This document shows positions 454 through 59,690 of a stretch of 64,000 nucleotides of DNA, piece after piece. The first letter of the stretch is position 1. Each line of letters begins with the position of its first letter. Origin of the DNA: a virus (lineage: Duplodnaviria > Caudoviricetes); IMG/VR virus record IMGVR_UViG_3300031466_000001, positions 64,001-128,000 of that record; one strand, 5' to 3'. The notes beneath the pieces are model-generated. The model had not been told where the DNA came from. It saw nothing but the letters and a program-made list of their open reading frames with translations, and made no database searches. Both the position numbers and the translations under genes were made by a program.

Positions 454-1971
454 TTATATCTGATTTAAAAAGTTCAAGAATTCATCAGACAGGATATCCG
501 GCGTATTGATTTCAATCTTATTCCCAAGCTTTTCTGGATAATCATAATCCACTATCGTGAAATGAGAGTTGAGAAGGATTGAGAGTAGATTTATGATAAT
601 GTTGTTTTTATTCAGCTCATCAACTACTATACCGAATTTTTCTTGGAGAATAGATTGATACACCGGAGAGTTACGAACCTTTTCCAGAAACTTCTGATTC
701 TGAATAGTCCGTTTGATAAGCTTTTCAACGTTTCCGGATAAGATCATAGGAAGATAGATGAATCCTTGATATTGGAGACGTTTTTTCAGTATCAACATGA
801 GCTTGATATATTGAGAGCGTGTCAAGAGATTAATATCTCTATACCCACCGAAATACTTCGCATAGAAGTAACCTACGAGCTGAACTTGAAATTTGTTGAT
901 CTTGTGATGTTGCTCGTAGAATCTAAGCTCATCTTTGTCGATATCGATACCGAATCGTTTTTTTATCTTTTTGATCGTCTTCTTTATATTAACAGAAGAC
1001 AAGATAACCAAGGACTCATCGATTTTGGCCGAGTTCATTTCAAGCTTATCAATACCGCTCAAACCCTCTGAGTCCTTCGTTGTGGTCAATTCTCTCATCG
1101 TATAATTGTATGGTGTTATTGAAAAGAAGCCAAGCTGTTTATCCAAGACAACGGAGTTGAAACTGATGATGTTTTTGTGGAATCTATATTTCACCATCGT
1201 CTCGGAAATGATGTTCTCTTTCAGCAATGTGTCCATATAGATAAGCGGGTCCATACCCATGATCTCCCGCTGATTCCATATGACACTGTTATTACTATAG
1301 TGCCGTTTTATCTTCGACTCTACAGTTATTCGAAGTTTCAGATAGATATCAACCTTGTCGTCCCACATATAGAACAGATGTTCATAGAAGATGAACAATG
1401 GGGTCTCTTTGTCCTTGATGATGTTATTCCTATTGATATAGTGGAACAACACCGGAACCATGAGTTTCATTCCCATTGAAATCTTCATCATGATTTTTGC
1501 GTGCTCATTGGTGAATTCCAATGTCTCCGCATACTTGATGTTGTTTTTGGACTTAAGGTCGATATAATAATTATCCTCAACCATACGGTTAATTTTCTCT
1601 TTCATCGATTCGGTAAACAATACCGAGTAAAGCATTTTGATGAAAACTTTTCTTTTGATGCGTTTTTTCTTGTTGTCGATTTGATGCTTGAGCATCAGGT
1701 AAGCCATAAGCAGCTCATTATCCGTATCGTAAAACTTGATGAAATAGTTAATATACAAAGCAATTTCGGGCAACTGTTTAACATACGAATCTTTCTTGAT
1801 TACGAATACGTTAAAACCTTTGTTACCCTTCTTGAAAATTTCATCAAACGGAATAATCAGAAGCTTTCCGTCACAACGAACAATCTCGTCTTTAGGATTC
1901 TTATAGACGATCTCATTTTCACTCGCTCCTTTAGCCCATTCATCAACCCTTATAAAATCCTGCTTATTCAT
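454..1971 (-). CDS. putative non-virion RNA polymerase promoter-specificity (sigma-like) subunit, AR9 gp226-like
   Basis: 505-aa ORF two genes downstream of the chaperonin, matching the recalled AR9 order gp228 (chaperonin)-gp227-gp226. Similar size and an early promoter upstream. Assigned by synteny, not motif. Confidence 0.55.
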   Translation of the reverse strand: MNKQDFIRVDEWAKGASENEIVYKNPKDEIVRCDGKLLIIPFDEIFKKGNKGFNVFVIKKDSYVKQLPEIALYINYFIKFYDTDNELLMAYLMLKHQIDNKKKRIKRKVFIKMLYSVLFTESMKEKINRMVEDNYYIDLKSKNNIKYAETLEFTNEHAKIMMKISMGMKLMVPVLFHYINRNNIIKDKETPLFIFYEHLFYMWDDKVDIYLKLRITVESKIKRHYSNNSVIWNQREIMGMDPLIYMDTLLKENIISETMVKYRFHKNIISFNSVVLDKQLGFFSITPYNYTMRELTTTKDSEGLSGIDKLEMNSAKIDESLVILSSVNIKKTIKKIKKRFGIDIDKDELRFYEQHHKINKFQVQLVGYFYAKYFGGYRDINLLTRSQYIKLMLILKKRLQYQGFIYLPMILSGNVEKLIKRTIQNQKFLEKVRNSPVYQSILQEKFGIVVDELNKNNIIINLLSILLNSHFTIVDYDYPEKLGNKIEINTPDILSDEFLNFLNQI

Positions 1972-2024
1972 TATCCCTAACCGCCACCCTCTATTTTAAA
2001 TTTGTTTCTCCACATCCTACCATT

Positions 2025-9537: not shown

Positions 9538-11484
9538 CTAAACTTTCAGAATGTTGCTGATATATTCTCTCTTGCTACTTCTTATAGTTTGAATACCGAG
9601 AGACTCCAATACTGAATAGAATCTCTTGAGATTGTCTGTCACAATTGTCCGATAGTCAATGAATGGAATAATCCAGTCTGGAATCTTTTTAACGTTTCGA
9701 GGCAATGCAATCACTTGCACACCTTTTTCTGCAATTTTCTTTTCTTTATTATTTAATATTTTCTCAACGATGATCCCGTAGTGTTCCGGACTAACGGCCT
9801 TAACCTTTTCAATTTCTGTCGGAGTTGCAAGTTTAACTTTAATGAGGTCAGGTTTTTCAGGTAATTCAATAATATTGACCGGATACAAATAGTTCCAAGC
9901 AATTACAGCTCTGACCCCTTGCATTCTCAAAGGATCGGCATATGATTCAAGTTCCTTAACCGATGTCGGGATAAGGAAACTTTTTTCGCCATTTTTCAGA
10001 GAGTTAATGATAATCTCTTCAAATTTCTCAAGATCTCTCAGAATTTCACCAACGTTAATCTTATTGGCTTTCAAGATTCTTTCTTCAATAATTTTAGTGA
10101 AATATTCTTTGGTTTCTTCCCTGGTTGTAGACTTAATGAAGTCCATACCTTTGATCTCGGTTTTCTCAGGGAATATTTCTTTACCTTCACGAAGTCTGAC
10201 GCTTGCAAAATATCTTTTCTTCTTAGTCGACAAAACAATCCGGCTAAGAAGATATTCGTTTTTCATATTAATCTTAGGACGATATTCTTTGGGAATATTT
10301 GCCGTCTTCGTATATTTCTCAAGAACTTCGGTAATCATATTTGTCAAGATATAACACATCGTGTTGATAGCAATAAATCTAAGTTGTTGATAATCTCTCG
10401 ACGCGAGATGATTGTGAGGTTTAATTACGAAATTAAACATGAACTCGACCCAAGGATTGAGATTCAAAAAGTTCGAGTCTGTATCAACAATTATGACAGT
10501 CTTACGTCTAACGTTTTTCAAACGTTGAATTCTGTCAAAAGAAGGATAATTGTAGAATACAAACTCTTTATAGAAATCCCAGAGATCTTCAAGATTAAAC
10601 TTAATAGATTCGGGAATTTTATTCGGATTCTTGAATTCCTCAACGTTTTCTACAATCTTAACGAGTTTAGTACGAATTTTCGGCAAATAAGAAAACTCGT
10701 AAAGATTGTTTTTGAAATATGCTCGCTTGATATATTCGTCGGATTGATTATTCAGATAGTTAATGAGAAGAGGTTCATATTCTTCTCTATATTCATAAAA
10801 CATTCCTCTCAGTCGATTAAGAATTTTATCTACTGAGATAAAGGGTAGGAAAGAAGCATCCAGCTCATAATCTTCTTTCCGAATATTTTCCAAGAAATTC
10901 ATACAGTCATCCAAATCGATAAACGGTGTGTTGTTGGACATGAATGCTTCAAACGCTTGTTGTGTAGTACTTATAAGAGATTGACCCGCAGCGGTTACAC
11001 TGGTTGCAGTATAAAGATTGAAAAAGTTTGATGTCTCTGCACCAGATGCACCATAATAACTATTCGAATTAACTTTTTCTGTCATTTGAAGTCTGTCGAA
11101 AGTTTGATATTCGTAACTACCTTCTTTATGATTGGCCAATTGAGATTTATACTCTTTCCGGAGAGCCATGAATTTCTCCAACATCACAGCCGCCGGATTC
11201 AACGCTTGCCCTTGATCCTTAAAGAACACACCAAAACCACCCATAACGGGGTTGGTGCGCTCGATCCAATTGACCACACTCAGCAAATCATCACTAACCG
11301 ACTTGTGGATGTAGTTATTATGGATTTCAACTTTAGGGTTAACCAAAGTTTCATCGATAATACTGTCGAGAAATTTATTCAATTCTTTTTTATCTAAGTC
11401 GGGATACATCTGCATCAAAATATTTCTTTGATGTTTTCTCCATTCTTTAAGAAAAGTGTACCTATCTACGAGTTTGTTACCCAT
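9538..11484 (-). CDS. split family-B DNA polymerase, C-terminal (motif B/C, thumb) subunit
   Basis: motif B KVNSNSYYG, motif C IVDTDS, KKRY and EIKGMD motifs; lacks exonuclease and motif A; start ATG 11484 after GGAGG. Confidence 0.88.
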   Translation of the reverse strand: MGNKLVDRYTFLKEWRKHQRNILMQMYPDLDKKELNKFLDSIIDETLVNPKVEIHNNYIHKSVSDDLLSVVNWIERTNPVMGGFGVFFKDQGQALNPAAVMLEKFMALRKEYKSQLANHKEGSYEYQTFDRLQMTEKVNSNSYYGASGAETSNFFNLYTATSVTAAGQSLISTTQQAFEAFMSNNTPFIDLDDCMNFLENIRKEDYELDASFLPFISVDKILNRLRGMFYEYREEYEPLLINYLNNQSDEYIKRAYFKNNLYEFSYLPKIRTKLVKIVENVEEFKNPNKIPESIKFNLEDLWDFYKEFVFYNYPSFDRIQRLKNVRRKTVIIVDTDSNFLNLNPWVEFMFNFVIKPHNHLASRDYQQLRFIAINTMCYILTNMITEVLEKYTKTANIPKEYRPKINMKNEYLLSRIVLSTKKKRYFASVRLREGKEIFPEKTEIKGMDFIKSTTREETKEYFTKIIEERILKANKINVGEILRDLEKFEEIIINSLKNGEKSFLIPTSVKELESYADPLRMQGVRAVIAWNYLYPVNIIELPEKPDLIKVKLATPTEIEKVKAVSPEHYGIIVEKILNNKEKKIAEKGVQVIALPRNVKKIPDWIIPFIDYRTIVTDNLKRFYSVLESLGIQTIRSSKREYISNILKV

Positions 11485-11495
11485 AACCAGCCCTC

Positions 11496-11864
11496 CTATC
11501 TTATAGTACAAATAACTTGATACGCGTCTCTATATTTTATATCTGAAACTTTCTTACTTTGCTTTTCTACTATTTTTAATTCAGGAATATTGTTATTTAT
11601 AAATTTAATAATTCTCTCTATATGCTGCATGTTCTTTTGGTAGCCATATAGCGTAAACCAACTCTTTGTATCTTCTTTGAAAATATCTTTTAAAGGAAGA
11701 GGTAATGTGGTGTCTAATGAGTGTAATAAATCATCAAGAATTGATATCTCCTTTTTAACACTATTCTTTTTATATTCATTTTCAAGATACTTATCGATTA
11801 CCACAAATAACCCATACATTTTATTTTTATATTTTAACTTCAAAGCGATAATACATAAATTCAT
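11496..11864 (-). CDS. hypothetical protein
   Basis: 122-aa ORF; early motif at 11916-11925 upstream. Confidence 0.7.
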   Translation of the reverse strand: MNLCIIALKLKYKNKMYGLFVVIDKYLENEYKKNSVKKEISILDDLLHSLDTTLPLPLKDIFKEDTKSWFTLYGYQKNMQHIERIIKFINNNIPELKIVEKQSKKVSDIKYRDAYQVICTIR

Positions 11865-13501: not shown

Positions 13502-13594
13502 AAGGGTGTTAAAGAGGAGATGGTGGATAAGTAGAAAAATACTATCCAGTTAACAAATTAGTGAGAGATATAATAAATAGGAGGTTGGGATTGG

Positions 13595-15604
13595 ATGATA
13601 GTGCAACCTGGTTTAACAGAAGAAGCAAAGAAAACAATGGAGTTCCTTTCAAATAATATTTTGATTATTGAAAATCACACAAAGAATAAAAAGTCATATA
13701 ATGAGTTCATTGAGAAGATCTATGATTTCGTTAAACAGGGTTTTGAACATAAAGAGTTCCGAACCCATCCAGTTTACTTTAAATTCTTCAATCGAGAAAA
13801 CGAGTATATTCACACACTTCAACTTAGACATTTTTTGACCAATATAATGATGTGGGAACCGTTGGTAAGATTGGAACGGTTCTCACATATCAACCCTCAT
13901 TACATTGTAGACTGCTCAAAGATATCTGCAAATCTCATTAAGTCATATATTGACAATATGATTATAATTCCATTCAGGAAGCAATTCGACAATAAAAAAT
14001 TGAATAAAGTTATTCACGACATGATTCATAATCTGTCTAGGATTTCGACAGATTTCAATATGATTCTTGGTTTGTCAATTAATGTTGAGACATTCATTCA
14101 AGTTGCAGAAAGAAATCCACGATTCAATGAAATAATCAGAACCAAAATCGATGAAAGTATGCAACCGAAGGAAATTGAGGATTATCTTGATCAACTCATG
14201 AATGAAGAAATTGAAATTTTGAAAACAGAAGATAACTTCCTCAAACCCATTCTGATGGCTGGGACAGGTATAAAGCCAAAGCAGCTTACCGAGTTCTCTA
14301 TTAATGGTGGGTTGAAACCGGACCTCTATGACAACACGATTCCTATTCCGATTAACTCGAACTTCATCGTTGGTGGACTGGGTAATGTAACCAATTATTA
14401 TCTGGATTCCCTTGGCGGTCGTAAGGCTGCCATTATGAATAAGCACGTAATGGGCAAATCAGGACACTTTGCCAGAATGGTTATGCTTCTTGCGTCTGAC
14501 ATTGAATTGAAGAAAAAGGGTGAGGGTGCTCTCGACTGCGGAACTCTCTATACTGTAAAGATAGAGGTGAAAACTCGTGAGCATCTTAAGAAACTTATTG
14601 GACGTTATTATCGTTTCCCTCACACTAGGGAATACAAAGTGATTAAAGCCGAGGATGAACATCTTATCGGCAAAACCATCCTGCTCCGTACGCCTGTAAG
14701 ATGTGCAGGAAAGAAAATCTGTATGAAATGTTACGGGGAACTGTATTACACGAATAAAAACCTCAAGTCTGTAGGTGGTTATGCAGGAACTCAGGTCACA
14801 AACCCACTATCACAAAATATTTTGTCAGCAAAACACTTGCTAACTACACAATCAGAAGAAATAAAATTCAACGAAGAATTTTATAAATTCTTCTCGATAA
14901 ACGTTAATGAAATTTATCTGAACACCGAGAATGAGGATGTTGATATCAACCAATATAGCATGATCATTATGAAGGATAACGTTCAGACAATTGATCAATT
15001 CGATGATAGTGAGTTCAACTCATACATCTTGTTGTTCGAATTGAAAAACCGTAAGACCGGCGAGGTCATCGAGATCCGTGAGCAAAACGGAGGAGAAATG
15101 TATATCTCTGAAGATCTCAAAAGGTTACTGGACAATAACAGATCATCCAGAGACTATTACGAGATTCCATTAAGCAATCTGTCTTTTGACGACAGATTGT
15201 TTGTCATGGAAATTGCAAATAATGAACTTACGAAGCCCCTATATAGCATCATGAACCTTCTTAATAGAAGTGATCATGAAGGATGTACTACTGTGGACGA
15301 GATGGTTCAAAAGTTTCTTGATCTACTTATCGAATCGAAATTCTCAGTAGACTCTGTTCACGCTGAGATTTTGATTAGACCGTTGATTAGGAGTACGAAA
15401 GATATACTTCAACCGCCGAATTATCGAAAATATGTAGAAGGTAACGAATATAGGATCTTGACAGTAGACTCTGCTCTTCAAAACCATCCGTCTGTTCTGA
15501 TCAGTCTGTCGTTCCAGGATCTGAGCAGACAATTGATCAAGCCCATCACATTCAGAAAGAGTGGATCTTCGTTCATCGATCCGTTCTTCAAAGAAAAAAT
15601 TTAA
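13595..15604 (+). CDS. multisubunit RNA polymerase beta' C-terminal subunit (probably non-virion RNAP)
   Basis: bridge-helix-like GGRKAAIMNKHVMGKSGHFAR, DCGT, LRTPVRC..ICMKCYG zinc site, trigger-loop-like SQNILSAKH; no NADFDGD (expected in the separate beta'-N gene). Confidence 0.9.
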   Translation: MIVQPGLTEEAKKTMEFLSNNILIIENHTKNKKSYNEFIEKIYDFVKQGFEHKEFRTHPVYFKFFNRENEYIHTLQLRHFLTNIMMWEPLVRLERFSHINPHYIVDCSKISANLIKSYIDNMIIIPFRKQFDNKKLNKVIHDMIHNLSRISTDFNMILGLSINVETFIQVAERNPRFNEIIRTKIDESMQPKEIEDYLDQLMNEEIEILKTEDNFLKPILMAGTGIKPKQLTEFSINGGLKPDLYDNTIPIPINSNFIVGGLGNVTNYYLDSLGGRKAAIMNKHVMGKSGHFARMVMLLASDIELKKKGEGALDCGTLYTVKIEVKTREHLKKLIGRYYRFPHTREYKVIKAEDEHLIGKTILLRTPVRCAGKKICMKCYGELYYTNKNLKSVGGYAGTQVTNPLSQNILSAKHLLTTQSEEIKFNEEFYKFFSINVNEIYLNTENEDVDINQYSMIIMKDNVQTIDQFDDSEFNSYILLFELKNRKTGEVIEIREQNGGEMYISEDLKRLLDNNRSSRDYYEIPLSNLSFDDRLFVMEIANNELTKPLYSIMNLLNRSDHEGCTTVDEMVQKFLDLLIESKFSVDSVHAEILIRPLIRSTKDILQPPNYRKYVEGNEYRILTVDSALQNHPSVLISLSFQDLSRQLIKPITFRKSGSSFIDPFFKEKI

Positions 15605-18953: not shown

Positions 18954-19180
18954 ATGGCTTTCAAAGGTTATAATACTATACAAGAATTACTGGAAAAGGA
19001 CAGGACTACACGGACGGAGAAATTATCAAAATATGGGAAGCAATTAAATACTGCTTAAAAGAAAAGTTGTATTCTTTGGATGAACCGTATGATACGGTAT
19101 ATTTCCCCGGTGTTACTATGGGTGATTGGGTGGAAGCGGTATATTGTGAAATGGAAAGAAGAAAATTAAAGGTCTCATGA
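18954..19180 (+). pseudogene. frameshifted small gene (or sequencing error)
   Basis: AGGAGG-ATG start; adding one base in the A run at 18994-18997 restores a 75-aa ORF ending TGA 19180. Confidence 0.55.
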
Positions 19181-19237
19181 CCTTTTTTTTATTTCTATCT
19201 TTTATTTTTTTTTTCACTAAAAAATAATTAAATTAAA

Positions 19238-19249
19238 AACATAAAGGTA
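19238..19249 (+). promoter_or_regulatory. late-type phage promoter AACA-N6-TA
   Basis: AACA-TAAAGG-TA with no downstream ORF before the terminator. Confidence 0.65.
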
Positions 19250-19317
19250 ATTATCCCAACCCATCCCCAACCCCCCTCAAAGCGGATGCACTCAAATGTG
19301 CATCCGCAATTTTTTTT
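19249..19317 (+). ncRNA. candidate C-rich small regulatory RNA (~69 nt)
   Basis: late promoter, unstructured AUUAUCCCAACCCAUCCCCAACCCCCCUC, perfect 10-bp hairpin GCGGATGCAC/GTGCATCCGC and T8 tract. Confidence 0.6.
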
Positions 19318-19347
19318 GTTAAAAAGGTATATTTTTGGAATATAAAT

Positions 19348-19357
19348 TATATATTAT
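19348..19357 (+). promoter_or_regulatory. early-type phage promoter motif TATATATTAT reading into the foreign-fragment cassette
   Basis: exact motif, associated with a 13-bp direct repeat TATATTTTTGGAA (19328-19340, 19355-19367). Confidence 0.6.
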
Positions 19358-19380
19358 ATTTTTGGAAATACTTATTTGGT

Positions 19381-19466
19381 ATAAAGTCCTGCGGCTCGTA
19401 GGGCCGACGGCGCCGCTTTTGGTCGCGGTTCGCATTCGCAACCGTCGACGCGATGAGGCCAGCGCG
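19381..19466 (-). pseudogene. fragment of siphophage tail assembly chaperone (protein T-like) gene
   Basis: GC-rich (38/60 in 19381-19440); encodes RAGLIASTVANANRDQKRRRRPYEPQDF. Confidence 0.65.
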
Positions 19467-19469
19467 CGC

Positions 19470-19583
19470 CCAGCCCTCAAGGCTAAAGTGCGGATCGCTG
19501 ATCAGACCGCCGAGATCGCCGCTGCCGAATTGATCCACGAACCACTTCGGCGCCGGCACGTGCTCAGTCAGCGATTCGGCGAT
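19470..19583 (-). pseudogene. fragment resembling C-terminal region of Paenibacillaceae-type phage endolysin
   Basis: GC-rich; encodes IAESLTEHVPAPKWFVDQFGSGDLGGLISDPHFSLEGW; resemblance recalled, not searched. Confidence 0.45.
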
Positions 19584-19585
19584 TG

Positions 19586-19750
19586 CTATTTTCTTCGAAT
19601 CAATTTAGTGTTCTTATCCCAATTTTCCATTTGCTTTTTTATAGAATCAAAACGTTCATCCTGTTCTTTTGAAAACTTTTCGAATTTCTCAATATCATCC
19701 ATAACTTTCTTGTGCACAAACCCTATGAATTGTTTGGTTTTAGAGAACAT
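19586..19750 (-). CDS. 54-aa hypothetical protein inside the foreign cassette
   Basis: AGGAGG RBS, MFSKTKQFIG...KLIRRK-stop; upstream TATAAT boxes; below ORF-track cutoff. Confidence 0.65.
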   Translation of the reverse strand: MFSKTKQFIGFVHKKVMDDIEKFEKFSKEQDERFDSIKKQMENWDKNTKLIRRK

Positions 19751-19811
19751 GCGAAATGCCTCCTTTTTCTGAACTTTATTATACGCAAAAAGTATTAATT
19801 ATACCACTGTC

Positions 19812-19850
19812 AAACAACCCCGCCCAGCCACACGGCCAGGCGGGGTTTCT
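19812..19850. terminator. GC-rich host/prophage-type terminator after the holin fragment
   Basis: AACCCCGCC...GGCGGGGTT stem immediately downstream of the holin stop on the minus strand. Confidence 0.7.
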
Positions 19851-19856
19851 TCCCGT

Positions 19857-19967
19857 TCACTTCCCGATGATGTTTTTCGTTCCACTCCAAAGCCCCATCG
19901 CGCTGAACGCCATGACAAAACCGGCCAGTACAGCGTATTTCGGATCGTCCGGCGCCACGTACACGAA
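19857..19967 (-). pseudogene. C-terminal fragment of a phage holin gene
   Basis: FVYVAPDDPKYAVLAGFVMAFSAMGLWSGTKNIIGK-stop; hydrophobic helix and G(L/F)xSGxKN end typical of small Bacillales holins. Confidence 0.65.
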
Positions 19968-19982
19968 CTCGGCGATCTGGTC

Positions 19983-20051
19983 AGTCGCGCGGATCAGGTT
20001 TCGATGCACCGCCTCCGCGAGCTTCACAGCGGCCGCCGGGCGGGTGGTGTA
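19983..20051 (-). pseudogene. internal fragment of an N-acetylmuramoyl-L-alanine amidase (Amidase_3) gene
   Basis: YTTRPAAAVKLAEAVHRNLIRAT, resembling the segment after the ETxxY strand of Amidase_3; 42/60 GC in 19981-20040. Confidence 0.6.
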
Positions 20052-20071
20052 TACTATTAGTCCAAATTAGT

Positions 20072-20112
20072 AAAAAATAAAGGGATGGTTAATATACCAT
20101 CCTTTATTTTTT
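20072..20112. terminator. bidirectional intrinsic terminator
   Basis: AAAAAATAAAGGGATGG...CCATCCTTTATTTTTT. Confidence 0.85.
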
Positions 20113-27273: not shown

Positions 27274-28512
27274 ATGAGTAAGAGCCAAGATATGATCCTC
27301 CTTGAGGAATGTTTTTATGATATCAAAAGTAAGAATAATGTCAATGGTGCAATACTTAGAATCCAACGTGTGATTAAGCGGAATTTTGATATCAACTTCA
27401 CAATCAATATCGTCAATAATGATACTAGAGAATTTTTTGGTATGAGTATTTATCCTAATAAAAATCAAATAGAAAAGATCATTGATGCTATTGTCAATAA
27501 AAAGTCCAGTACAGATGTAGTTATTGATCTTTGGCAAAAGACCGACGAGTGGGTTCTTGAAATTGATTCTATTTTGCTCTATGATAAGAACCTTAATGCT
27601 AATCCTGCGGAAATTGTGGCAGTTCTTCTTCATGAGATTGGTCATGTTGTTTATTCCAACTCTATCCCTCAGAGGGTAAACCGCATTCTCCGCTATAAAA
27701 TGATGCACGCTAATCTTGCTTTGAAAAAGCTGATTAGCTGGCCCAAAGCACAAAAAATTATTCAACTTGTTTTTGTGGATGCTTGTAGCTCTAAGAACTT
27801 TCGTTATACAAATCTTAAAACTGAAAGAGTTGCCGACCAGTTCGTTGAGAAAATGGGTTATGGTGAGAACCTTAACAACTTCATTGATAAACTCGTTGCA
27901 ACCCAAGGAAATCGTCTTGTAAATCGAACTGAAGAACAGGTCGATCAAGACATTACTGCTACGGTAAATTGGACTTTTGTTAATATTGCAGAACTTGAAT
28001 TCCGTAGAAGTAATCTCAGAACTACTTTACAAACAGAACTCCTGAAAAATCCGAGTCGTTTTGTAAGGGATATCGTTTACGATATTCGCAGCACATTCTT
28101 TGGTAAGGGTGAGAGTGAAAATCCCTATACTGACGCGGTTAGAGAACAATATCTTACCAATGAATTTAACGTCATTGTAAAAGAGGGTCTGCTCAGTATC
28201 TTTGATAAAAATGGAAAAGTAAAGAAAATCACCCAAGCAGATATTGATATTCTCTCAGTTGAAGTTGGTCGTATTGAGAATGAAGACGACAAGATCTATG
28301 TATTGGATCTTATCTATGATAAACTTTCGGTCATTAATGCTGCACTTGATCTTATTAAAAATGGTCAAAAGGAAAAGGTTCCTGTATCTAAGGATACTCT
28401 CGAATCTTTCAAAGCCCAACTTGAACGAATGAGAATAATGGCCCTCGAAACTCCCATCAAACCCAAACAATACGGGGTCTTTATTAAGTACCCTAAGGGC
28501 TATGAGGGTTAA
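27274..28512 (+). CDS. virion-associated protein with HExxH zincin-like motif
   Basis: AVLLHEIGHVV and downstream ERVAD; located in the head cluster. Confidence 0.6.
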   Translation: MSKSQDMILLEECFYDIKSKNNVNGAILRIQRVIKRNFDINFTINIVNNDTREFFGMSIYPNKNQIEKIIDAIVNKKSSTDVVIDLWQKTDEWVLEIDSILLYDKNLNANPAEIVAVLLHEIGHVVYSNSIPQRVNRILRYKMMHANLALKKLISWPKAQKIIQLVFVDACSSKNFRYTNLKTERVADQFVEKMGYGENLNNFIDKLVATQGNRLVNRTEEQVDQDITATVNWTFVNIAELEFRRSNLRTTLQTELLKNPSRFVRDIVYDIRSTFFGKGESENPYTDAVREQYLTNEFNVIVKEGLLSIFDKNGKVKKITQADIDILSVEVGRIENEDDKIYVLDLIYDKLSVINAALDLIKNGQKEKVPVSKDTLESFKAQLERMRIMALETPIKPKQYGVFIKYPKGYEG

Positions 28513-28532
28513 GGTCGGGGAGTTGGTCTCTC

Positions 28533-30596
28533 ATGTCCGGTAAGAAAAGAACTTTTATTTACGATATAAAAACACGTAATCTATCGTTCCTTCAGGTTGC
28601 AGTTGATTTAAAAAGACTCGGTATTAAAAATAATATGTTTTTTCTTCGACTCTATGATGAAACACTCCAAGGGGTTGATCCGTTCTCTCCCTATTTGACA
28701 GAGGACCAAATGGTTCGTATTATTAATGAATGTATGGTAAACCCCTGGTATTTCCTGCGTGAATGTGTGAGAATTCCGGACCAAGGTGGTAACGGCATAC
28801 CTTATCAACTTCACCGGGCCAATCTGGCACAAACATTCTGCTTCCTTCTTGGTATAGACCATTATGTGGTCATACCTCGTCAGAAAGGTAAAACACAATC
28901 AGCCATAGCAATTATAGACTGGGCATTTCTGTTTGGTACAACTAACTCTGAAATTGCATTCATTAATAAGAGATCTGAGGACGCTATCAATAACTTGGCA
29001 CGTCTCAAAGCTCAAAGAGATCTCTTGCCTTCTTATATGCAAATGAAGATTGCATATGATGAAGATGGAGATGAAGTTAAAGAACGTAATAATGTCAAGT
29101 CTCTTATGAATCCCACGAATAAGAATAGAATCGTCACCAAACCCTCGGCCACATCTATACAAGCAGCGGATGGTATTGGTCGGGGTAATACGCAACCCAT
29201 CCAATATTACGATGAAGTTGAGTTCACTCCGTTTATTAAGACAATTATTGAGGCTGCCGGTCCTGCATTTGTCACGGCGGCACGGAATGCAAAAAGAAAT
29301 AACTCTGCATATTGTCGTATATTTACATCTACTCCTGGCGACTTGGATACTCAACCAGGTCAAGACGCTATGGAGATCATCTCTAAGACCTGTAAATGGA
29401 CTGAAAAGTTCTATGACTGGTCTTTGGATGACATTAATGAATATATCGAAAAATGTTCCGAGAATAAAATCGTTTATATCGAATACAGCTACATCCAATT
29501 GGGTGAAGGTGAAGAATGGTTTAACGAACAATGTCGTATTCTTAACAATAACCCACAGAAGATAAAGCGTGAAATTTTGCTGAAACGTATGCGCGGTTCT
29601 CAGGATTCGCCATTTGATCCTGAAGATCTCGATGCATTGCCTGATATGAAAGGTATAATTAAAGATGAAATATTCATTAATAAACTATTCCCTCTGTATA
29701 TTTATGAAGAGCTGGATAAAGAAAGAATTTATATGGTTGGTGTTGACGTAGCAAGTGGTTATGGTGACAGGCGGGATAATTCAGCACTGACTATAGTTGA
29801 CCCTTATACTCTTAAAGTCGTAGCAGAATTTAAATCGCCATACATCAGTGAGGCTGAATTCACAAAATTCATCTATACGTTAGTCAGAAGATATATTCCT
29901 AGGGCTATCGTTATCATCGAACGAAACAAAGGTAGTGCTATTATTGAATTCTTGCGTCAAACTGAAATTGCTAGAAATATTTACTTTGAAAATGTAAAAG
30001 ACCCGATGGAAGAAAGTGTCGTCGACCGTCTTGACAATAAAGGATTCCTCAAGAAAGAAGCCAACAAACGTCGTATGTTTGGTGTCTGGACTGGTCCTAA
30101 ATCACGCGAAAGAATGTTCGAACTTCTTTATGTACATGTCAAAGAGAAAAAAGACAAACTCATTGGCCAATTCTTGATAGACGATATCTTGAGTCTTGTT
30201 GTTACAAAAGGTGGAAAAATTGTTGCAGGGCAAGGATTCCATGATGACAACGTAATGTCATATTTGATGGTCCTTTATGTGTATTATCACGGCAATAATC
30301 TTTCCAGGTTTGGATTCACTAAAGGATCTCTTCCTGATGAAAACGAACGAAATAAAGGTCTCGATTATGAAGATATATATGAGGAATTACCTGAGGATTT
30401 AAAAGAGGCATTTAAGAACGTAGGATCAAAAACACTGGCAGATTATCAAAATGATATGGCAATGGAAATAATGCGTGCACGAAGAGAATCCAATATGATT
30501 GATGCAATGCTTAGACCTAAAAACTACGTAGAAGATCAAGATGCGTATGATGAGGATATGATAGATATGGATCTTTTTGATGAATTGAATAACTAA
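28533..30596 (+). CDS. terL: terminase large subunit
   Basis: Walker A PRQKGKT, Walker B YYDE, TST coupling motif, nuclease GVDVASG..DNSA, HDD. Confidence 0.93.
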   Translation: MSGKKRTFIYDIKTRNLSFLQVAVDLKRLGIKNNMFFLRLYDETLQGVDPFSPYLTEDQMVRIINECMVNPWYFLRECVRIPDQGGNGIPYQLHRANLAQTFCFLLGIDHYVVIPRQKGKTQSAIAIIDWAFLFGTTNSEIAFINKRSEDAINNLARLKAQRDLLPSYMQMKIAYDEDGDEVKERNNVKSLMNPTNKNRIVTKPSATSIQAADGIGRGNTQPIQYYDEVEFTPFIKTIIEAAGPAFVTAARNAKRNNSAYCRIFTSTPGDLDTQPGQDAMEIISKTCKWTEKFYDWSLDDINEYIEKCSENKIVYIEYSYIQLGEGEEWFNEQCRILNNNPQKIKREILLKRMRGSQDSPFDPEDLDALPDMKGIIKDEIFINKLFPLYIYEELDKERIYMVGVDVASGYGDRRDNSALTIVDPYTLKVVAEFKSPYISEAEFTKFIYTLVRRYIPRAIVIIERNKGSAIIEFLRQTEIARNIYFENVKDPMEESVVDRLDNKGFLKKEANKRRMFGVWTGPKSRERMFELLYVHVKEKKDKLIGQFLIDDILSLVVTKGGKIVAGQGFHDDNVMSYLMVLYVYYHGNNLSRFGFTKGSLPDENERNKGLDYEDIYEELPEDLKEAFKNVGSKTLADYQNDMAMEIMRARRESNMIDAMLRPKNYVEDQDAYDEDMIDMDLFDELNN

Positions 30597-38925: not shown

Positions 38926-39600
38926 CTAATCAGTGGGCATCTTTATACAGCTATAAAGATGAAAAGAGGATATTGAATTATTCTCATCCATCAATACAGC
39001 CTCGAAAATTTCTTCGTTTATTTCCGAAAACAAGAACCATATATCTGAACTATTTTTCAATGTGGGTAATAATTCTTTTGACATTTTAATCCGAAAATCT
39101 TCATACTGATGAATCAGTATCTCACCGTCAAGCAATGTCTGAGTGGCTTCATCGCTCATTTTAATAGACTTTTGCTTGAATTGTTTAATTTTCTCTTTCA
39201 CTTTGAAATAGATATTGGGAATAATCGAATCGCTTATTTCGCCAATAACAAAGTTCAATTCTTTCTTATCCGTAGAGACTTTTATTTTAATCAGATTATT
39301 ATCTACTACAATTTCTTCAATTTCGGATTTCTTATAATCCTTAAAAACTTCGGAAATTTTTACACCATTGAGTATAAGAAATCCGGAATTTGTCATCGCA
39401 CTAACAATTTCCTGTATTGTCTCTGATTGAGCAAAATGGTATCCTATATCAATAACTTTGCTATTTTGATAAGGTAATGCAATTCCGTCTCCAAAAAGGC
39501 AATAGACCTTACACATACGTCTCATTACCTTATTCAATTCTTCTACTTTCTTAATGATTTTTTTATCTACTTTAAGGTTGTCCATTACCATCATCCCCAA
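38926..39600 (-). CDS. hypothetical protein translationally coupled to the DNA polymerase subunit
   Basis: 224-aa ORF overlapping the end of the upstream gene. Confidence 0.75.
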   Translation of the reverse strand: MGMMVMDNLKVDKKIIKKVEELNKVMRRMCKVYCLFGDGIALPYQNSKVIDIGYHFAQSETIQEIVSAMTNSGFLILNGVKISEVFKDYKKSEIEEIVVDNNLIKIKVSTDKKELNFVIGEISDSIIPNIYFKVKEKIKQFKQKSIKMSDEATQTLLDGEILIHQYEDFRIKMSKELLPTLKNSSDIWFLFSEINEEIFEAVLMDENNSISSFHLYSCIKMPTD

Positions 39601-41428
39601 TTTCGATAACTAATTTGTCGATAAAATGTGTATTTCCATACAACTCAGGAACTTTATATTTCTTTCTATTCTTGATTCCAAACTGTTCACGAACTTTCTT
39701 ATCCAATTCAAGAATACCAGGGAGACCAAACCATTTGGTTCCCATGAGCCCATAGTTTCCAATAAGATAATTGTCTACAAACTCTTTACCTTTGTCATCA
39801 ATGTCACTGTTATCCGAATTTTGAATCTTACGACTAACTTCCCCAATTGAACTATCAATGATCAATTTTCCAATCATAGTATTAGGTGCAACGTTGAATG
39901 TTATAATTATATTTGGATACATGGACGAGAAGTCCATATCTACAGCATTATCGTAAATAAACATGCTTCTTTTTCCAAAAATCTTAACCCCAGTATGTGA
40001 ATTAAGCATGGGGTCTGCAACTAATGCACCATCGAATTTTTCATCGTCATCGCCTTCATCCGATTCTTGTGCTTTTTTGTTCTTAGTACTCTCACCGTAA
40101 TCAACGTTGATGTTATTCCCAATAATCAGACCCTGTTTATAAAACTCAACATAGGCCCGATTCTTAAGGAACACCGTCTGTTTGAATACTTTGTGATATA
40201 CAGTAGCATTTGCATATGCTCGTTGATAAATATTATCAGTATCTCCGGTTTTATCCTCAATTCCCATTTGAAGAAGAACGTCTTTTATATTATATTTAAC
40301 GAAAAGCCAATAATCAACCCATGCTAATGTTTTGATATTGGCAGCTTCGCTGTAATCAAGCTTAGAATCACCAATCTCTTTCTCTGCAACTGCATTAAGA
40401 GAAAAGGATCTGATCTCTCCTTGACCTTTTCTAAGTCCGCCATAATTGATCATTTGGTCGAGATACGTTGTATATGAAGAAATTCTAAAATAGTCTCCCT
40501 TATTGGGAATGGAGAAAGTTTTATAATCTTTCTTATAGAAAAGATATTTGACTTTGAAATCTTTATGACACATAACTCTTATGGGATCTAATCCGAGTTT
40601 CTTCAGGCGTTCGATAATGTACGGAATATCGAAGCCCATGTTCCAAATCAACATAAAATCCCGTTTAAGAGTGTTAATCAATTTAAACATATCAACTATG
40701 AGATCACATTCATCATCATACATGTAAATATTGTAATCCAGCACTCCATAAACATCATCAAAGTCATCATGGAGTTCTTTAATAAACTCATCCACTCTTG
40801 CTTCAAAATCTGCAATTAATGGGTTTTCAGGATTTCTTAAAAGAAAAGTGAATACTGATTTACTCTCTTTATCTACAATGGTTGCTGCATTAATGGGACA
40901 TTCTCCCTCTTTCGGAAACCCATCAAACTTATAGCTGTCAACCTCAATATCGAGAAACTGCTTTGTAATATATTTGGGTCGATCATTGTCGTTGTGTAAA
41001 ACCCATTGAATTCTCACCCAGTTTTCGATATCATAATCTGAACCAAATACATATGGGTATTTATGAATTTCATGAATTTTACCCCAATTACCTGTAGCTT
41101 TACAATCTTCAATAAATTTTTTAAACATGTCACCCGCTTGCTGGGCGATATAGAAGGGAAGATTGTTAAATTTACATCTATGCATCTCTGTCTGATCGAG
41201 TTCAATAAATAATTTATTATAATCGTAGTTACGATATTTTTCTTTTGTAAAATAAATCTCAATTTCAGGCTCTCTAATTGTTTCAACAAATTTTTCTCCC
41301 GTATCAAGATCTTTATAGATAATATCAAGATAGTCTGCATCCCCACCAACTTTTTTATTATGATACATAACATTTAACAACATCGTATTTTCTTTATTTC
41401 TATGAGGTATAAATTTCAAGTTTATCAC
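39572..41428 (-). CDS. split family-B DNA polymerase, N-terminal subunit (3'-5' exonuclease plus motif A)
   Basis: ExoI LDIEVD, ExoII WNMGFDIPY, ExoIII YNIKD, polymerase motif A DMDFSSMYPNII. Confidence 0.9.
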   Translation of the reverse strand: MINLKFIPHRNKENTMLLNVMYHNKKVGGDADYLDIIYKDLDTGEKFVETIREPEIEIYFTKEKYRNYDYNKLFIELDQTEMHRCKFNNLPFYIAQQAGDMFKKFIEDCKATGNWGKIHEIHKYPYVFGSDYDIENWVRIQWVLHNDNDRPKYITKQFLDIEVDSYKFDGFPKEGECPINAATIVDKESKSVFTFLLRNPENPLIADFEARVDEFIKELHDDFDDVYGVLDYNIYMYDDECDLIVDMFKLINTLKRDFMLIWNMGFDIPYIIERLKKLGLDPIRVMCHKDFKVKYLFYKKDYKTFSIPNKGDYFRISSYTTYLDQMINYGGLRKGQGEIRSFSLNAVAEKEIGDSKLDYSEAANIKTLAWVDYWLFVKYNIKDVLLQMGIEDKTGDTDNIYQRAYANATVYHKVFKQTVFLKNRAYVEFYKQGLIIGNNINVDYGESTKNKKAQESDEGDDDEKFDGALVADPMLNSHTGVKIFGKRSMFIYDNAVDMDFSSMYPNIIITFNVAPNTMIGKLIIDSSIGEVSRKIQNSDNSDIDDKGKEFVDNYLIGNYGLMGTKWFGLPGILELDKKVREQFGIKNRKKYKVPELYGNTHFIDKLVIEIGDDGNGQP

Positions 41429-46643: not shown

Positions 46644-46660
46644 GCGATTAAAATTTAAGT

Positions 46661-46737: not shown

Positions 46738-46748
46738 AGATAGGTATA

Positions 46749-49386: not shown

Positions 49387-51060
49387 TTATAGATCGTCGT
49401 CATTATCGTTGATATTTATCCAGACCCTGAGATAACCATTGTCATACTCAGTTCTCTTTATCGACGACATTCTGACAACTTCTCTTAAATTTCTTTCTTG
49501 GTCAAAGAGTTCTTGAATCGTTTCACATTTCTCAAACGGGTCCACGTAAAGAATATCTTTGTTCTGCTCTTTGTGTTTCTTAGACATCTCTTTCTGGAAA
49601 TCGAAAATACCATCCTCAGGTTCATGAGCTCCATCAAAATACAACCCTTCGGTTTTACAGAAAGGCGTGATGATACCAGATGAACCTGGGTCGCTTGTTC
49701 CACAGACGTTGATATCCAATCTTCCCAAATATGATGGGTGGATACCTCTATATTTCATCGGAATATTGTTTTCGTTTTTATTACCAAGAGAGTTTGGACC
49801 TTTCAAGGTAAATCTAAGTTTTGCAAAGAAGTCCATATCATTAATGCGATCATCATACCGAAGCAATCCGGATATATGGAGTTGATCCATCAAAATATTT
49901 CCGGAAAACTTCAAGATTTCTTTTACTTTATCCAGAGTAACTCTGCTACCAGCAGCGATTACCCGATTCATTCTTTCATTAAAAGCTTTTGTCAGCAGAG
50001 ATACAATATATTCATTGCACCTCAAACGTTTATTTGTCAAATCCATGTTATCCTTTTTACGAAGTTCGTTGTAATTTTGGACCATCCAGCGAAGGATGGA
50101 ATAGATGGATTTTTTATTCGAATCGTTGATCTTAAGAATATCTTTCGTCGTTTCATCAAGCATACGCTCAATGAATTTCAGTGTATTTAATCCTTTTTCC
50201 ATGTAGTTATATGAATTGGTAGCGTGCATACTTCCAATCCATTCAATCCAGTAGTTTCTATTATCAAGGTCCTCATAATTCAAACGATTTGTAACAAATC
50301 GCAGAATCATGGACACTATTGATTGCACATATTGATACTTTAGAAAGAAATAACGGTTTACTTCCAAAAATAGTTTATTTTTTATCTTGAAATAGATGTT
50401 ATTCTCTTTATCCCCTTCTTCTTCAACGAATCTAACCACTTTATCAACGCTGAAGAATTTAAGGGTTTTGGTAACACCCATTTTCGCAAAATAAATCAGT
50501 AAAAGGTCTATCTCTTTCCTAAAGATAAGCAAATATGTGGGGGCAGTATAAAAATTACCGTCGGTATCCTCAAACTCCCCTTTAACACGTTTAAGAACTA
50601 CTGGAACCAGAGATTTAAGTGTCAAATTCTGGCGAGTTGTATAGGTAGAAGAATCTACCAATTGATAGAGCAAAAGATATTTCTTACCTTTGATTGTATA
50701 GTAGCCATTTTCGTCAGCTACTGGGATAAGAAGCTTCTTAGTTACGATCGCTTCCTCACCCTTACATTCCAGCTTGAACTTGAGACGAAGCTCCATGTAT
50801 CTGCTATCTTGCATGTACATGTAGCGCGTATCGGATTTCTTTCTGGATTTTTTACGGGTAGTCATATATTCATTGAGATCAATCTCTTTCTCATCCTCAA
50901 TGAATGTATAACCGAGAAATTTAATATATTCAAGGACCTCCAATGATTTACATGCGTTTACAATTAGTTTAATGAGGTCCTCATCGTATTCGCGGGTAAT
51001 GAGACCGTAGTTAATTCGTTTTTCATTTTCGTTTTCATAATTCGCTATGAAATCTCTCAT
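49387..51060 (-). CDS. multisubunit RNA polymerase beta N-terminal subunit (probably non-virion RNAP)
   Basis: GYYTIKG....QL, KGP, RGIHPSYLGRLD....SDPG (beta Rif-region-like); early motif 51122-51131. Confidence 0.88.
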   Translation of the reverse strand: MRDFIANYENENEKRINYGLITREYDEDLIKLIVNACKSLEVLEYIKFLGYTFIEDEKEIDLNEYMTTRKKSRKKSDTRYMYMQDSRYMELRLKFKLECKGEEAIVTKKLLIPVADENGYYTIKGKKYLLLYQLVDSSTYTTRQNLTLKSLVPVVLKRVKGEFEDTDGNFYTAPTYLLIFRKEIDLLLIYFAKMGVTKTLKFFSVDKVVRFVEEEGDKENNIYFKIKNKLFLEVNRYFFLKYQYVQSIVSMILRFVTNRLNYEDLDNRNYWIEWIGSMHATNSYNYMEKGLNTLKFIERMLDETTKDILKINDSNKKSIYSILRWMVQNYNELRKKDNMDLTNKRLRCNEYIVSLLTKAFNERMNRVIAAGSRVTLDKVKEILKFSGNILMDQLHISGLLRYDDRINDMDFFAKLRFTLKGPNSLGNKNENNIPMKYRGIHPSYLGRLDINVCGTSDPGSSGIITPFCKTEGLYFDGAHEPEDGIFDFQKEMSKKHKEQNKDILYVDPFEKCETIQELFDQERNLREVVRMSSIKRTEYDNGYLRVWININDNDDDL

Positions 51061-51171
51061 CCCAACTTTGACCTCCCAACATCAGTTTTCCCATATCATC
51101 TATTGTAATGTAAGCTAATAAATAATATATAATTTATCACCTCCTCTCTTTTCCAAAAAATCATTTATTTT

Positions 51172-57357: not shown

Positions 57358-59634
57358 TTAAACATCAATTTCAACTACCAACATTTTTTCACGTCTCTTT
57401 GCCAGCTCGATTTCCCGCTGAATCTTTTCTTCAACTTCTTCAGGTGTACCGACGAGAATGATGTCGCCTTGAAATTTCTTTCGGACATCAATTTCTAGCT
57501 TAATGTCATTGAATTCTCTTTCTGTGCAAATGAACAGTCTACCATCGTATTCGTAATCCTTGATCAGGTCAGTATCGATCTTGACAACATACTTATCTTC
57601 TTCGAATTCAATTTTCAATCCTAAAAAGAGAAGATATGCGTTCAAGATCTCAACGTTCCTGTTTATGAAATCATTTCGATCGTTGAATTTCTTCATCTCT
57701 TTGAGATTGGTCATAAGTTCTTCACCAAGATCCCTACGACCAAGTACAGATGATCTGTAGAAGAGATGAAGTTTTGCAATAATATTTGTATCTACACCGA
57801 TGGCACTGTTTATATTTTCTTGGTCGCCAATTCTGATAGGTGTTTTACTATAAAGCTCTTGGTGAGTTTTAGCTTTATTCGTTTTCTCAGGAAGACCTTT
57901 TCTTGATAAACCTCCAGTAGACCGTACACTAAGGCCCTTTTTCGAAGTTTGTTTCAGTTTGAGAATATACATGTCGCCTACAATCAGTGGCTTAAGAATT
58001 TTTATGGTTCGACCAAATTTATTGACATACACGTTATAGGGTTTTATCCAATCGAACTCTTTATAAATCTTCCTAAGTCTATCAAACAACGGCTCAGTTT
58101 CCCATAATGGAGGGACATGGATATAAATTCCCTCTTTGATAATATTATCAAAGAACGTTTCCCTGGACTTTTTGTTGAGAGATTTAATATATTTGGAAAG
58201 TTTCTCAGCTTGCCGTTCATTGAAATGCTGGACAATTCTCACGAGAAGATCTTCTTTTTCATCCAAAGAACTCAATGTAGCCAGTTTTTCCCGAACCCGG
58301 TTACAAATAAACGTTATCGACTGTTCATAAAGCTGCATGGAATTCAACCGGTTAATAACCCCAAGGCTATTGAAAATGACATCGATCCGTTCTCCAGTTT
58401 CGAGGAATGGCATTTCTTCATCTGGTACAATTACCGATACAACACCTTTATTACCATGTCGTCCAGTAATTTTTTGACCAGCACTGAGAGAGATATTTCT
58501 CTCAATCGTGAATTCAATGATCATGTTACTGAATACGGAATTATCTTCTTCTCTCCACTTATAATTTTCGTCAAGATAGTTCTTTGCTCGTTTGTAATAA
58601 TAGTTAATGTCTGATGAATAGTTAGAACCTGATTCAATGATTTTCTTACAACGGAGATAGATCTTTCGATAGAAGTTCTCCTGAAGCTCCAAGTATTTGA
58701 TAAATTGAGAATTGAAGCTATTTCTCTCAATCTTATCGAGAGGTTTATTGCAATAGATATTTATATCTACTACTCGCCCCTCGCAGAAATAAAGAGTATC
58801 GGAAGAATAATTGATCTTTCTGAGATTGGATTTTTTCAAATCGTAAAGCAATTGAGAATTGTGAATTCTTCTTTTTGCACAAACGATCCTATCGACGACA
58901 AACTCATTGATATCCGGAAAGCACTTATATGTTTCGGAGTCGCCATAAATGTTCGGAAGTATGTCATTATCGTTTACCGAAACCTTTACGGTTTCAATCT
59001 CTTTGGACAACATTTCATTCGCCAGAGATTGAGATACCTTAACAGCATCTTCAATGGTATAGTTGTCCAACAGATAAACGAATTTTACGTTCTTACCATA
59101 ACAATAGTTCATATTGTCATCATACGACGTTGTCTTATAGAGAACTTCTCCCTTTTTGACAACGTCGCCAACTTTTTTCGAATCGATAACATCGGTGTTA
59201 TATGAATAGCCGAATTTCTCGGTCAAATCTTCAACAACACGTTTTTCAATGATGTCGTACATATCCTTCTCTTTGTCATAGACAAACAAGAAGTAAATAT
59301 GATCATCATTGACACCATCTTCATACTTGGAAACCTTATCGATGATTTCCAAATCGGATTTGGCTTTATAATAGCCAGTAGAATTCTTACCAACAATATT
59401 TTCATAGTTGGTGAACACAAACGGGAAATCCGGATTAACGAGATTCACAGCCTGACGAAGATGGCTTGTAAACATAATATTTCTGGCCGAACTGATATAT
59501 CCAGGATTGGTAAGCAATGTTGCTCCGAATATATCGTCTTTAAAACTGAATTCTTTTTCTTTCTCAGCCAATGCCTCTCTAAGACTTAAAGTTTCTGAGG
59601 GTGCCTCTCTTCTACCTTGAGCCATTCCAACCAT
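57358..59634 (-). CDS. multisubunit RNA polymerase beta C-terminal subunit (probably non-virion RNAP)
   Basis: R..M...H.RQAV, YTIEDA, GQKITGRHGNKGVV, NSLGVINR, YILKLKQ, RIGDQE; early motif 59663-59672; start may be ATG 59625. Confidence 0.92.
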   Translation of the reverse strand: MVGMAQGRREAPSETLSLREALAEKEKEFSFKDDIFGATLLTNPGYISSARNIMFTSHLRQAVNLVNPDFPFVFTNYENIVGKNSTGYYKAKSDLEIIDKVSKYEDGVNDDHIYFLFVYDKEKDMYDIIEKRVVEDLTEKFGYSYNTDVIDSKKVGDVVKKGEVLYKTTSYDDNMNYCYGKNVKFVYLLDNYTIEDAVKVSQSLANEMLSKEIETVKVSVNDNDILPNIYGDSETYKCFPDINEFVVDRIVCAKRRIHNSQLLYDLKKSNLRKINYSSDTLYFCEGRVVDINIYCNKPLDKIERNSFNSQFIKYLELQENFYRKIYLRCKKIIESGSNYSSDINYYYKRAKNYLDENYKWREEDNSVFSNMIIEFTIERNISLSAGQKITGRHGNKGVVSVIVPDEEMPFLETGERIDVIFNSLGVINRLNSMQLYEQSITFICNRVREKLATLSSLDEKEDLLVRIVQHFNERQAEKLSKYIKSLNKKSRETFFDNIIKEGIYIHVPPLWETEPLFDRLRKIYKEFDWIKPYNVYVNKFGRTIKILKPLIVGDMYILKLKQTSKKGLSVRSTGGLSRKGLPEKTNKAKTHQELYSKTPIRIGDQENINSAIGVDTNIIAKLHLFYRSSVLGRRDLGEELMTNLKEMKKFNDRNDFINRNVEILNAYLLFLGLKIEFEEDKYVVKIDTDLIKDYEYDGRLFICTEREFNDIKLEIDVRKKFQGDIILVGTPEEVEEKIQREIELAKRREKMLVVEIDV

Positions 59635-59690
59635 CCCTTCTTTTTTCTTTCTATACCTATTTATAATATATAAAATAAAGAAGCGATGGT

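Follow-up and report, generated by a model that had tools for sequence, protein, structure and literature searches.

A predicted late C-rich small RNA of an AR9-related jumbo phage and its complementarity to start regions of non-virion RNA polymerase genes

Jumbo phages with two multisubunit RNA polymerases (RNAPs) express their genes independently of the host. We know of no account of how they balance the split subunits of these enzymes, the genes for which are scattered over 200-250 kb. In phage T4, translation of early genes is shut off by RegA, a protein that recognises AU-rich sites. For Bacillus phage AR9, experiments have established AACA-(6N)-TA/G as the late promoter, transcription starting at its last base, and late-promoter-driven antisense RNAs have been described (PMC5312081). 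One small RNA (sRNA) was predicted in a study of phiKZ and could not be detected (PMC8244752). In the literature we found no validated trans-acting sRNA for jumbo phages with two multisubunit RNAPs, and no phage sRNA that controls a phage RNA polymerase. Here we describe a locus that may encode an RNA of this kind.

The DNA analysed, hereafter the window, comprises 64,000 nt with 37% G+C from an uncultured jumbo phage that is distantly related to the Bacillus phages AR9 and PBS1 (amino-acid identity about 30%). Three of its genes match by tblastn AR9 genes annotated as non-virion RNAP (nvRNAP): beta'-C (13595-15604, + strand; AR9 g154), beta-N (49387-51060, - strand; g105) and beta-C (57358-59625 or -59634, - strand; g089). 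A fourth, at 454-1971 on the - strand, is gp226-like according to PHROG 25005 (E = 4e-31) and to a gene order shared with AR9 (primase, one gene, gp226, g227, GroEL); no direct tblastn match of this gene to AR9 g226 was obtained. Among the remaining called genes, most of those with at least about 90 aa were scanned with PHROG, and no further RNAP subunit emerged in the window. The gene for beta'-N is absent from the window and from the related fragments G001, G008 and G009, and was examined in the relative G002. A virion-RNAP beta' gene lies about 6.7 kb before the window start (L123 6783-8363); its start region is ordinary, GAGGAGG followed by an AT-rich spacer. Three tRNA genes are clustered at 46561-46824 (- strand).

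The element of interest occupies 19238-19317 and consists of the following parts:

19238..19249, + strand: late (non-virion RNAP) promoter motif AACA-TAAAGG-TA, AACATAAAGGTA, with AACA at 19238-19241 followed by TAAAGG and TA; the predicted transcription start is A19249
19249..19281, + strand: C-rich, G-free unstructured 5' region of 33 nt, AAUUAUCCCAACCCAUCCCCAACCCCCCUCAAA, the proposed seed
19282..19307, + strand: perfect terminator hairpin of 10 bp, with seven G-C pairs and a 6-nt loop
19308..19317, + strand: AA followed by T8 (19310-19317), the 3' end of the predicted 69-nt RNA

The 33-nt leader contains 20 C and no G, with C runs of 3, 3, 4 and 6 (CCC, CCC, CCCC, CCCCCC), and the stretch AUCCCAACC lies within this proposed seed region. 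When the 70-nt RNA 19249-19318 is folded, only the terminator forms (-20.6 kcal/mol, z = -7.4; none of 200 shuffles folded as well), and all 33 leader nucleotides, the C runs included, are unpaired in both the minimum free energy and the centroid structure. The 3' part has the make-up of an intrinsic terminator, a G+C-rich hairpin followed by AA and T8. No open reading frame (ORF) of 30 aa or more is present on the + strand of the element, and an Rfam search with it returned no match at the gathering score nor at E values up to 10. Composition sets the leader apart as well: 15 C or more combined with no more than 2 G occur in just two 30-nt windows on both strands of the 64 kb, namely in this element and in the antisense of the terminase start region.

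The upstream gene (18954-19180) has a weak terminator of its own at 19168-19185 (7 bp, three G-C pairs), so that the element sits between two terminators. This gene is broken over two frames (34 aa, then at least 37 aa), possibly by a frameshift, a sequencing error or decay into a pseudogene. On the other side, the block 19328-20112 includes GC-rich islands at about 19380-19590 and about 19790-20050 (58-70% G+C against 37% for the phage), which flank a small AT-rich ORF with a strong ribosome-binding site (RBS) at 19586-19750 (- strand); an ORF at 19347-19559 (- strand) gives a weak Pfam Phage_tail_T match, and an early-type box TATATATTAT at 19350 is directed into the block. The whole block is missing from G002 and may be a foreign mosaic or an assembly chimera.

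The AR9-type late motif appears to be in use in this phage. We counted 85 copies of AACA-N6-T[AG] in the window, 22 of them in intergenic DNA, which makes up 11% of the sequence; from the density in coding DNA about 8 would be expected there, so that about one third of the intergenic copies can be put down to chance. Twelve intergenic copies lie 37-45 nt 5' of a start codon, and the genes behind them include those of the tail sheath, of virion proteins and of beta'-C. Both the intergenic enrichment and the spacing to start codons indicate that the motif is used. The copy at 19238 is the only clean orphan in the window, a promoter that leads to a terminator instead of a gene. A second AACA-N6-TA motif, AACAAAGAGCTA at 56266-56343 (- strand), lies inside the 3' end of gene 56300-57250, is followed by a strong 18-bp terminator and is probably a chance motif at an operon end. 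These results agree with an earlier note, made from the sequence alone, which had described a late promoter, some 33 unstructured nucleotides, a 10-bp hairpin and T8 without an ORF: all these parts are present at 19238-19317, and both the AR9 consensus (PMC5312081) and the positional enrichment in the window speak for a late promoter. The same note had named four nvRNAP subunit genes, which the matches to AR9 g154, g105 and g089 and, for the gp226-like gene, PHROG 25005 and gene order bear out.

A comparable unit exists in G002 (IMGVR_UViG_3300004463_000226), a complete genome of 234,335 bp that is collinear with the window at about 65% nucleotide identity. It is located at the equivalent convergent junction, just downstream of the ortholog of 20575-21300, where AACATATAAGTA is followed by a leader of 51 nt and by a hairpin with T7; this hairpin has 14 bp judged by sequence and 15 bp when folded. 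The unit has no convincing ORF, the longest being of 32 codons, and its predicted fold places UCCCCU in a hairpin loop. The two units share only the promoter block (TAATTAA...AACATA.A.GTAATT) and the motif AUUAUCCC(C), while the unit body and the upstream genes differ; the block AACATA.A.GTAATT is preserved despite a diverged transcribed body.

Further homologs were sought without success. The fragments G001, G008 and G009 are 99% identical to the window and do not cover the element. We found no relatives by DNA among GenBank phages and no exact 22-mer of the element in IMG/VR; a degenerate promoter-plus-seed pattern, run against IMG/VR and JGI metagenomes, recovered only G002, its copy and unrelated coding sequences, and loci anchored on the neighbouring 250-aa and Dps-like genes yielded none that was informative. 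In the complete or near-complete relatives G003, G005, G006 and G007, the gp226-like proteins of which are 52-58% identical, the syntenic junction is free of orphan late promoters. AR9 lacks a syntenic unit, for which the 41-nt gap between g162 and g163, behind the helicase operon, leaves no room.

Is the element a gene at all? Its hairpin could be a back-up terminator of the upstream operon, with the C-run as a spacer and AACA-N6-TA as a chance match. Tandem terminators are plausible, given the weak one that precedes the element, and about one third of the intergenic late motifs are expected by chance. However, the promoter block is kept at the G002 junction although body and upstream genes are different, a 33-nt stretch with 20 C and no G is nearly unique in the window of a genome with 37% G+C, and the pairing energies described below exceed those of shuffled sequences, all of which makes this explanation improbable. 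We consider it very improbable that the element acts at the DNA level, in replication, packaging or protein binding. The complement of the leader, GGGGGGTTGGGGATGGGTTGGG, is a canonical G-quadruplex motif with four runs of at least three G and 2-nt loops, the top strand is correspondingly an i-motif, and intergenic C7-N3-C7 elements occur elsewhere in the genomes of relatives; but the syntenic unit of G002 has no quadruplex potential and still keeps promoter and terminator, and the position between these two favours an RNA product. We predict that the element is a genuine late sRNA gene, and regard this as likely.

The proposed targets of this predicted sRNA are sites close to start codons. 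We called 60 start regions in the window with a home-made caller, whose choice of starts favours Shine-Dalgarno-like upstream sequence, and ranked them by duplex energy alone and by duplex energy plus the opening energies of both partners (a home-made equivalent of IntaRNA). The regions discussed below are:

51056..51085, - strand: beta-N start region, in which GUUGGGAGG and GUUGGGAUG are predicted to pair with sRNA nt 2-24
1966..1995, - strand: gp226-like start region, GGUUAGGGAUAAUG, predicted to pair with the sRNA 5' end
13576..13605, + strand: beta'-C start region, AGGAGGUUGGGAUUGGAUG, with a 9/9 match at 13583
59611..59640, - strand: beta-C start region, AAGGGAUGGUUGGAAUGG
28501..28535, + strand: start region of the terminase large subunit gene (28533-30596), a non-RNAP gene
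39581..39610, - strand: start region of a 219-224-aa gene (38926-39585/39600), containing UUGGGGAUG
11476..11505, - strand: start region of the DNA polymerase C-half gene (9538-11484), UAGGAGGGCUGGUUAUGGG

Complementary sites are GGTTGGGAT at 13583 (+ strand), GTTGGGAT ending at 51066 (- strand) with an extra GTTGGG at 51075-51080, GGGATGGTTGGAAT at 59624-59637 (- strand), GGTTAGGGATAAT at 1970-1982 (- strand) and TTGGGGATG at 39592-39600 (- strand). With accessibility taken into account, beta-N ranks 1 of 60 (duplex -24.9; its start codon is conserved in the protein alignment), gp226-like 2 of 60 (-24.4), beta'-C 3 of 60 (-23.2 to -23.3) and beta-C 7 of 60 (-18.8 to -20.1); the ranks without accessibility are 2, 3, 4 and 9, beta-C being the ninth. 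The terminase gene forms the strongest raw duplex (-28.0; rank 1 without and 5 with accessibility), a counter-intuitive outcome, as its repression would fall late in infection. The 219-224-aa gene, which overlaps the end of the DNA polymerase N-half gene, has a 9-mer match at 39600, a duplex of -20.3 and accessibility rank 4, and the duplex of the DNA polymerase C-half gene has -22.7 (rank 5 without and 9 with accessibility). We also scanned both strands for duplexes in an unbiased way, in about 25,600 windows of 30 nt with the self-complement excluded. The order was terminase, beta-N, gp226-like, beta'-C (the last three thus at ranks 2-4), then a site inside GroEL, then the DNA polymerase C-half, with beta-C at about the 11th distinct site.

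All the sites that the earlier note had listed as complementary, at beta'-C, beta-N, beta-C and gp226-like, were found where it had placed them, as was the match in the gene coupled to the DNA polymerase (39592-39600), which is the one at accessibility rank 4 of 60. Generic GGAGG-type sites pair far less well, as that note had required: the RNAP duplexes reach -19 to -25 kcal/mol, whereas the median over all start regions, ordinary AGGAGG ones included, is -9.9. Its expectation that RNAP genes would lead an accessibility-based ranking holds for ranks 1, 2, 3 and 7 of 60, with the qualification that the terminase and DNA-polymerase genes score high too.

How much of this is specific? Perfect matches of 8-9 nt were rejected as evidence: the window holds 46 complementary 8-mer matches (about 35 distinct sites) and 11 complementary 9-mer matches, and since dozens of such short matches arise by chance, they are insufficient. 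The summed energy of the four RNAP start regions (-91.4) was reached by 0.4% of mononucleotide and 0.8% of dinucleotide shuffles; over all shuffle sets the proportion was 0-0.8%, the real sequence beating 99.2-99.6%. The RNAP rank order was matched by 15-24% of composition-matched 33-mer shuffles, and the RNAP start regions are among the most G-rich (14-15 G per 42 nt against a median of 9). As shuffles match the ranks and rarely the energy, specificity in the window is mainly that of a C-rich RNA meeting G-rich sites, to which sequence order adds a real but moderate share.

The relative G002 provides an independent comparison. Ranked against 252 start regions of its own genome without accessibility, the G002 RNA places beta-N first (-25.8) and gp226-like second (-23.6). 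A rank sum of 3 or less for these two was obtained with none of 110 shuffles (minimum 6, mean 99.5), and their summed energy is -49.4 against -31.5 +/- 4.5 for shuffles. With accessibility, beta-N stays at 1, gp226-like falls to 5 and beta'-N comes 8th of 252, at corrected energies that are modest (-11.6 and -7.6) and with a site for beta'-N that is only a 5-bp GGGGA match. The beta'-C and beta-C start regions of G002 are ordinary (ranks 70-141; beta-C 74-89; with accessibility 70 for beta'-C and 89 for beta-C), as are those of DNA polymerase, and terminase ranks 36-98. The complementarity that the earlier note had claimed for all four subunit genes is not conserved, pairing of beta'-C and beta-C being absent in G002.

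The beta-N start region reads GUUGGGAGG...GUUGGGAUG in the window and UUUAGGGGGAUGACCGAUGC in G002 (GUUGGGAUG against GGGGGAUGACCGAUGC), and each RNA matches its own beta-N, through AUCCCAAC in the window and through AUCCCC and GCAUCG in G002. For gp226-like, the core GGGAUAAU(G):AUUAUCCC is kept in both phages. Between the two RNAs, too few for covariation statistics, beta-N and gp226-like retain their predicted pairing and beta'-C and beta-C do not.

These comparisons also bear on whether a real late sRNA might have another job, such as regulating host mRNAs or titrating, as sponge or decoy, either a G-rich RNA or a protein that binds C; or it might be the processed 3' end of the upstream operon. 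The RNAP complementarity would then arise incidentally, from a C-rich RNA and start regions that happen to be G-rich. When the C-rich sequence is shuffled, the RNAP start regions of the window still rank almost as high as with the real sequence, genes other than those of the RNAP (terminase, DNA polymerase half) score equally high, and in G002 no terminator is visible by eye between the upstream gene and the RNA unit, so that the terminator of the unit probably ends the upstream operon too. Against this, the G002 ranks of beta-N and gp226-like depend on sequence order (0/110 shuffles), and the same two genes lead both independent rankings. On balance we judge another job for the RNA unlikely.

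The opposite sign of regulation has to be weighed as well. G-tract start regions could adopt structures that hold translation back, such as two-tetrad RNA G-quadruplexes, and the C-rich RNA could open them, or stabilise the mRNA, as a late activator. Four runs of at least two G with short loops (GGTTGG-like) are confined to 5 of the 60 window start regions, those of gp226-like, beta'-C, beta-C, terminase and the DNA polymerase C-half, and to 4 of 252 in G002, gp226-like and beta-C among them; such rarity would suit this reading. RoxS reportedly activates a target, and counts for it too. Moreover, nvRNAP subunits of AR9 are mostly expressed continuously, without shut-off (PMC5312081). However, the predicted duplexes cover Shine-Dalgarno sequence and AUG, which would normally block initiation, two-tetrad RNA quadruplexes are weak, and beta-N, the top candidate target in both phages, has no four-tract motif. 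Late activation therefore seems to us a rather poor prospect.

With repression by pairing as the preferred reading, the promoters of the target genes become relevant. Each of the four nvRNAP genes is preceded, at 45-101 nt, by an early-type box TATATATTAT, which resembles an early promoter sequence quoted for AR9 (PMC5312081); beta'-C carries a late motif in addition. More generally, the box (TTA)TATATTAT occurs at 19 window sites (e.g., 2032-, 13494+, 51129-, 59670-). Many genes of replication and transcription, and the four nvRNAP genes too, have it at a distance of 27-101 nt upstream, and an early-type box precedes the gp226-like gene in 16 of 16 relatives examined (loci L027-L042).

Outside the window phage and G002, nvRNAP start regions are mostly ordinary in G003, G005 and G007 and entirely so in AR9, and in G006 those of gp226-like and beta'-C are G-rich (14 and 13 G). 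Two kinds of unit were encountered in the relatives. Intergenic C7-N3-C7 elements (CCCCCCCTATCCCCCCC and similar) are present at G002 53362-53386 (+ strand), G005 205163-205180 (- strand) and G006 192625-192656 (- strand); an Rfam search matched none of them, and their complementary strand is prone to form quadruplexes. Units made of a late motif and a terminator and antisense to opposite-strand start regions were seen by eye at G003 46659 (- strand), G005 72887 (+ strand) and G002 181876 (+ strand), AACA-N6-T[AG] in relatives being taken as the late promoter by assumption. A further one, the C-rich orphan at G003 110943 (+ strand), was rejected as a homolog of our element, as it is a cis-antisense RNA, the exact complement of the region where the neighbouring gene 110195-110947 starts. 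Additionally, G005 has a group I intron (L068 165-401, about 200165-200401, - strand; Rfam RF00028, 97.5 bits), and the AR9 beta'-N gene g270 is likewise split by an intron, which carries an HNH endonuclease gene.

Altogether, we propose the following course of events. The element would be a stand-alone gene for a non-coding RNA of about 69 nt, which the nvRNAP would transcribe late and the intrinsic terminator would end. Its single-stranded, C-rich 5' 33 nt would pair in trans with G-rich regions reaching from the Shine-Dalgarno sequence into the AUG, in a manner like that of C-rich Bacillota sRNAs. The mRNAs of nvRNAP beta-N and of the gp226-like promoter-specificity subunit would be the best-supported targets, with beta'-C, beta-C, the terminase large subunit and the two DNA-polymerase-linked genes as extra candidates in the window phage. 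Because all four nvRNAP genes have early-type boxes, the likeliest outcome would be RBS occlusion on mRNAs of genes with early-type promoters (that of beta'-C having a late promoter in addition), and these boxes fit a late shut-off. As the gp226-containing nvRNAP holoenzyme would make the RNA, and the RNA would limit synthesis of nvRNAP subunits, a negative feedback loop would result.

The layout of the element, the places in which its promoter motif recurs, the syntenic unit of G002 and the computed pairing ranks are observed; production of the RNA, its pairing in vivo and its repressive effect are what we infer here. Repression of beta-N and gp226-like is plausible, and control of all four subunits is unproven. 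For the reading as a whole, of a late nvRNAP-made sRNA that occludes RBSs in trans within a feedback loop, we see the case as evenly balanced. It is a more tentative proposition that the C-rich RNA made by the nvRNAP pairs with the RBSs of this enzyme's own dispersed subunits, at least beta-N and gp226-like, and so closes an RNA-mediated feedback loop. Late-motif cis-antisense units in relatives, together with the late antisense RNAs of AR9, suggest that this lineage may have late RNA-mediated silencing of start regions in its repertoire; the loop may have evolved from such late cis-antisense RNAs, and the regulon may be marked by start regions with G-tracts, prone to form quadruplexes, through which the loop would operate. 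If true, this would be a first case of a viral multisubunit RNAP that regulates itself by means of an RNA. It would also offer a simple and testable handle on the late stage of the programme, in the form of a seed of 33 nt and a handful of short target sites. The predicted pairing with beta-N and gp226-like, kept in two phages, is a starting point for experiment.

Among described systems, the C-rich sRNAs RoxS/RsaE share with the window element a short RNA, several accessible C-runs, predicted pairing with G-rich Shine-Dalgarno and start regions and an intrinsic terminator; the G002 RNA resembles them also in a CCCC motif in a hairpin loop. Membership of RsaE/RoxS or another Rfam family was rejected, there being no gathering-score match and no RsaE match at E up to 10. 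Moreover, RoxS/RsaE have a host redox-responsive promoter and targets in host central metabolism, whereas the window element is phage-encoded, has a late promoter of the phage nvRNAP and is predicted to target the phage's own polymerase genes. The late antisense RNAs of AR9 are alike in promoter class (AACA-N6-TA/G), in the late timing that is predicted here and in origin from the same RNAP type of phage, and the relatives G002, G003 and G005 have late-motif-plus-terminator units antisense to start regions. Those of AR9, however, are antisense in cis to an overlapping gene, while the window element has complementary sites 5-32 kb away; cis-antisense identity was ruled out for it, as no gene is called opposite 19249-19317, where only a 15-codon micro-ORF could be read by eye. 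With T4 RegA the element would have in common that a later product represses dispersed earlier mRNAs at their initiation regions; in contrast to that protein, the proposed effector is an RNA, and the loop would close on the very polymerase that transcribes it.
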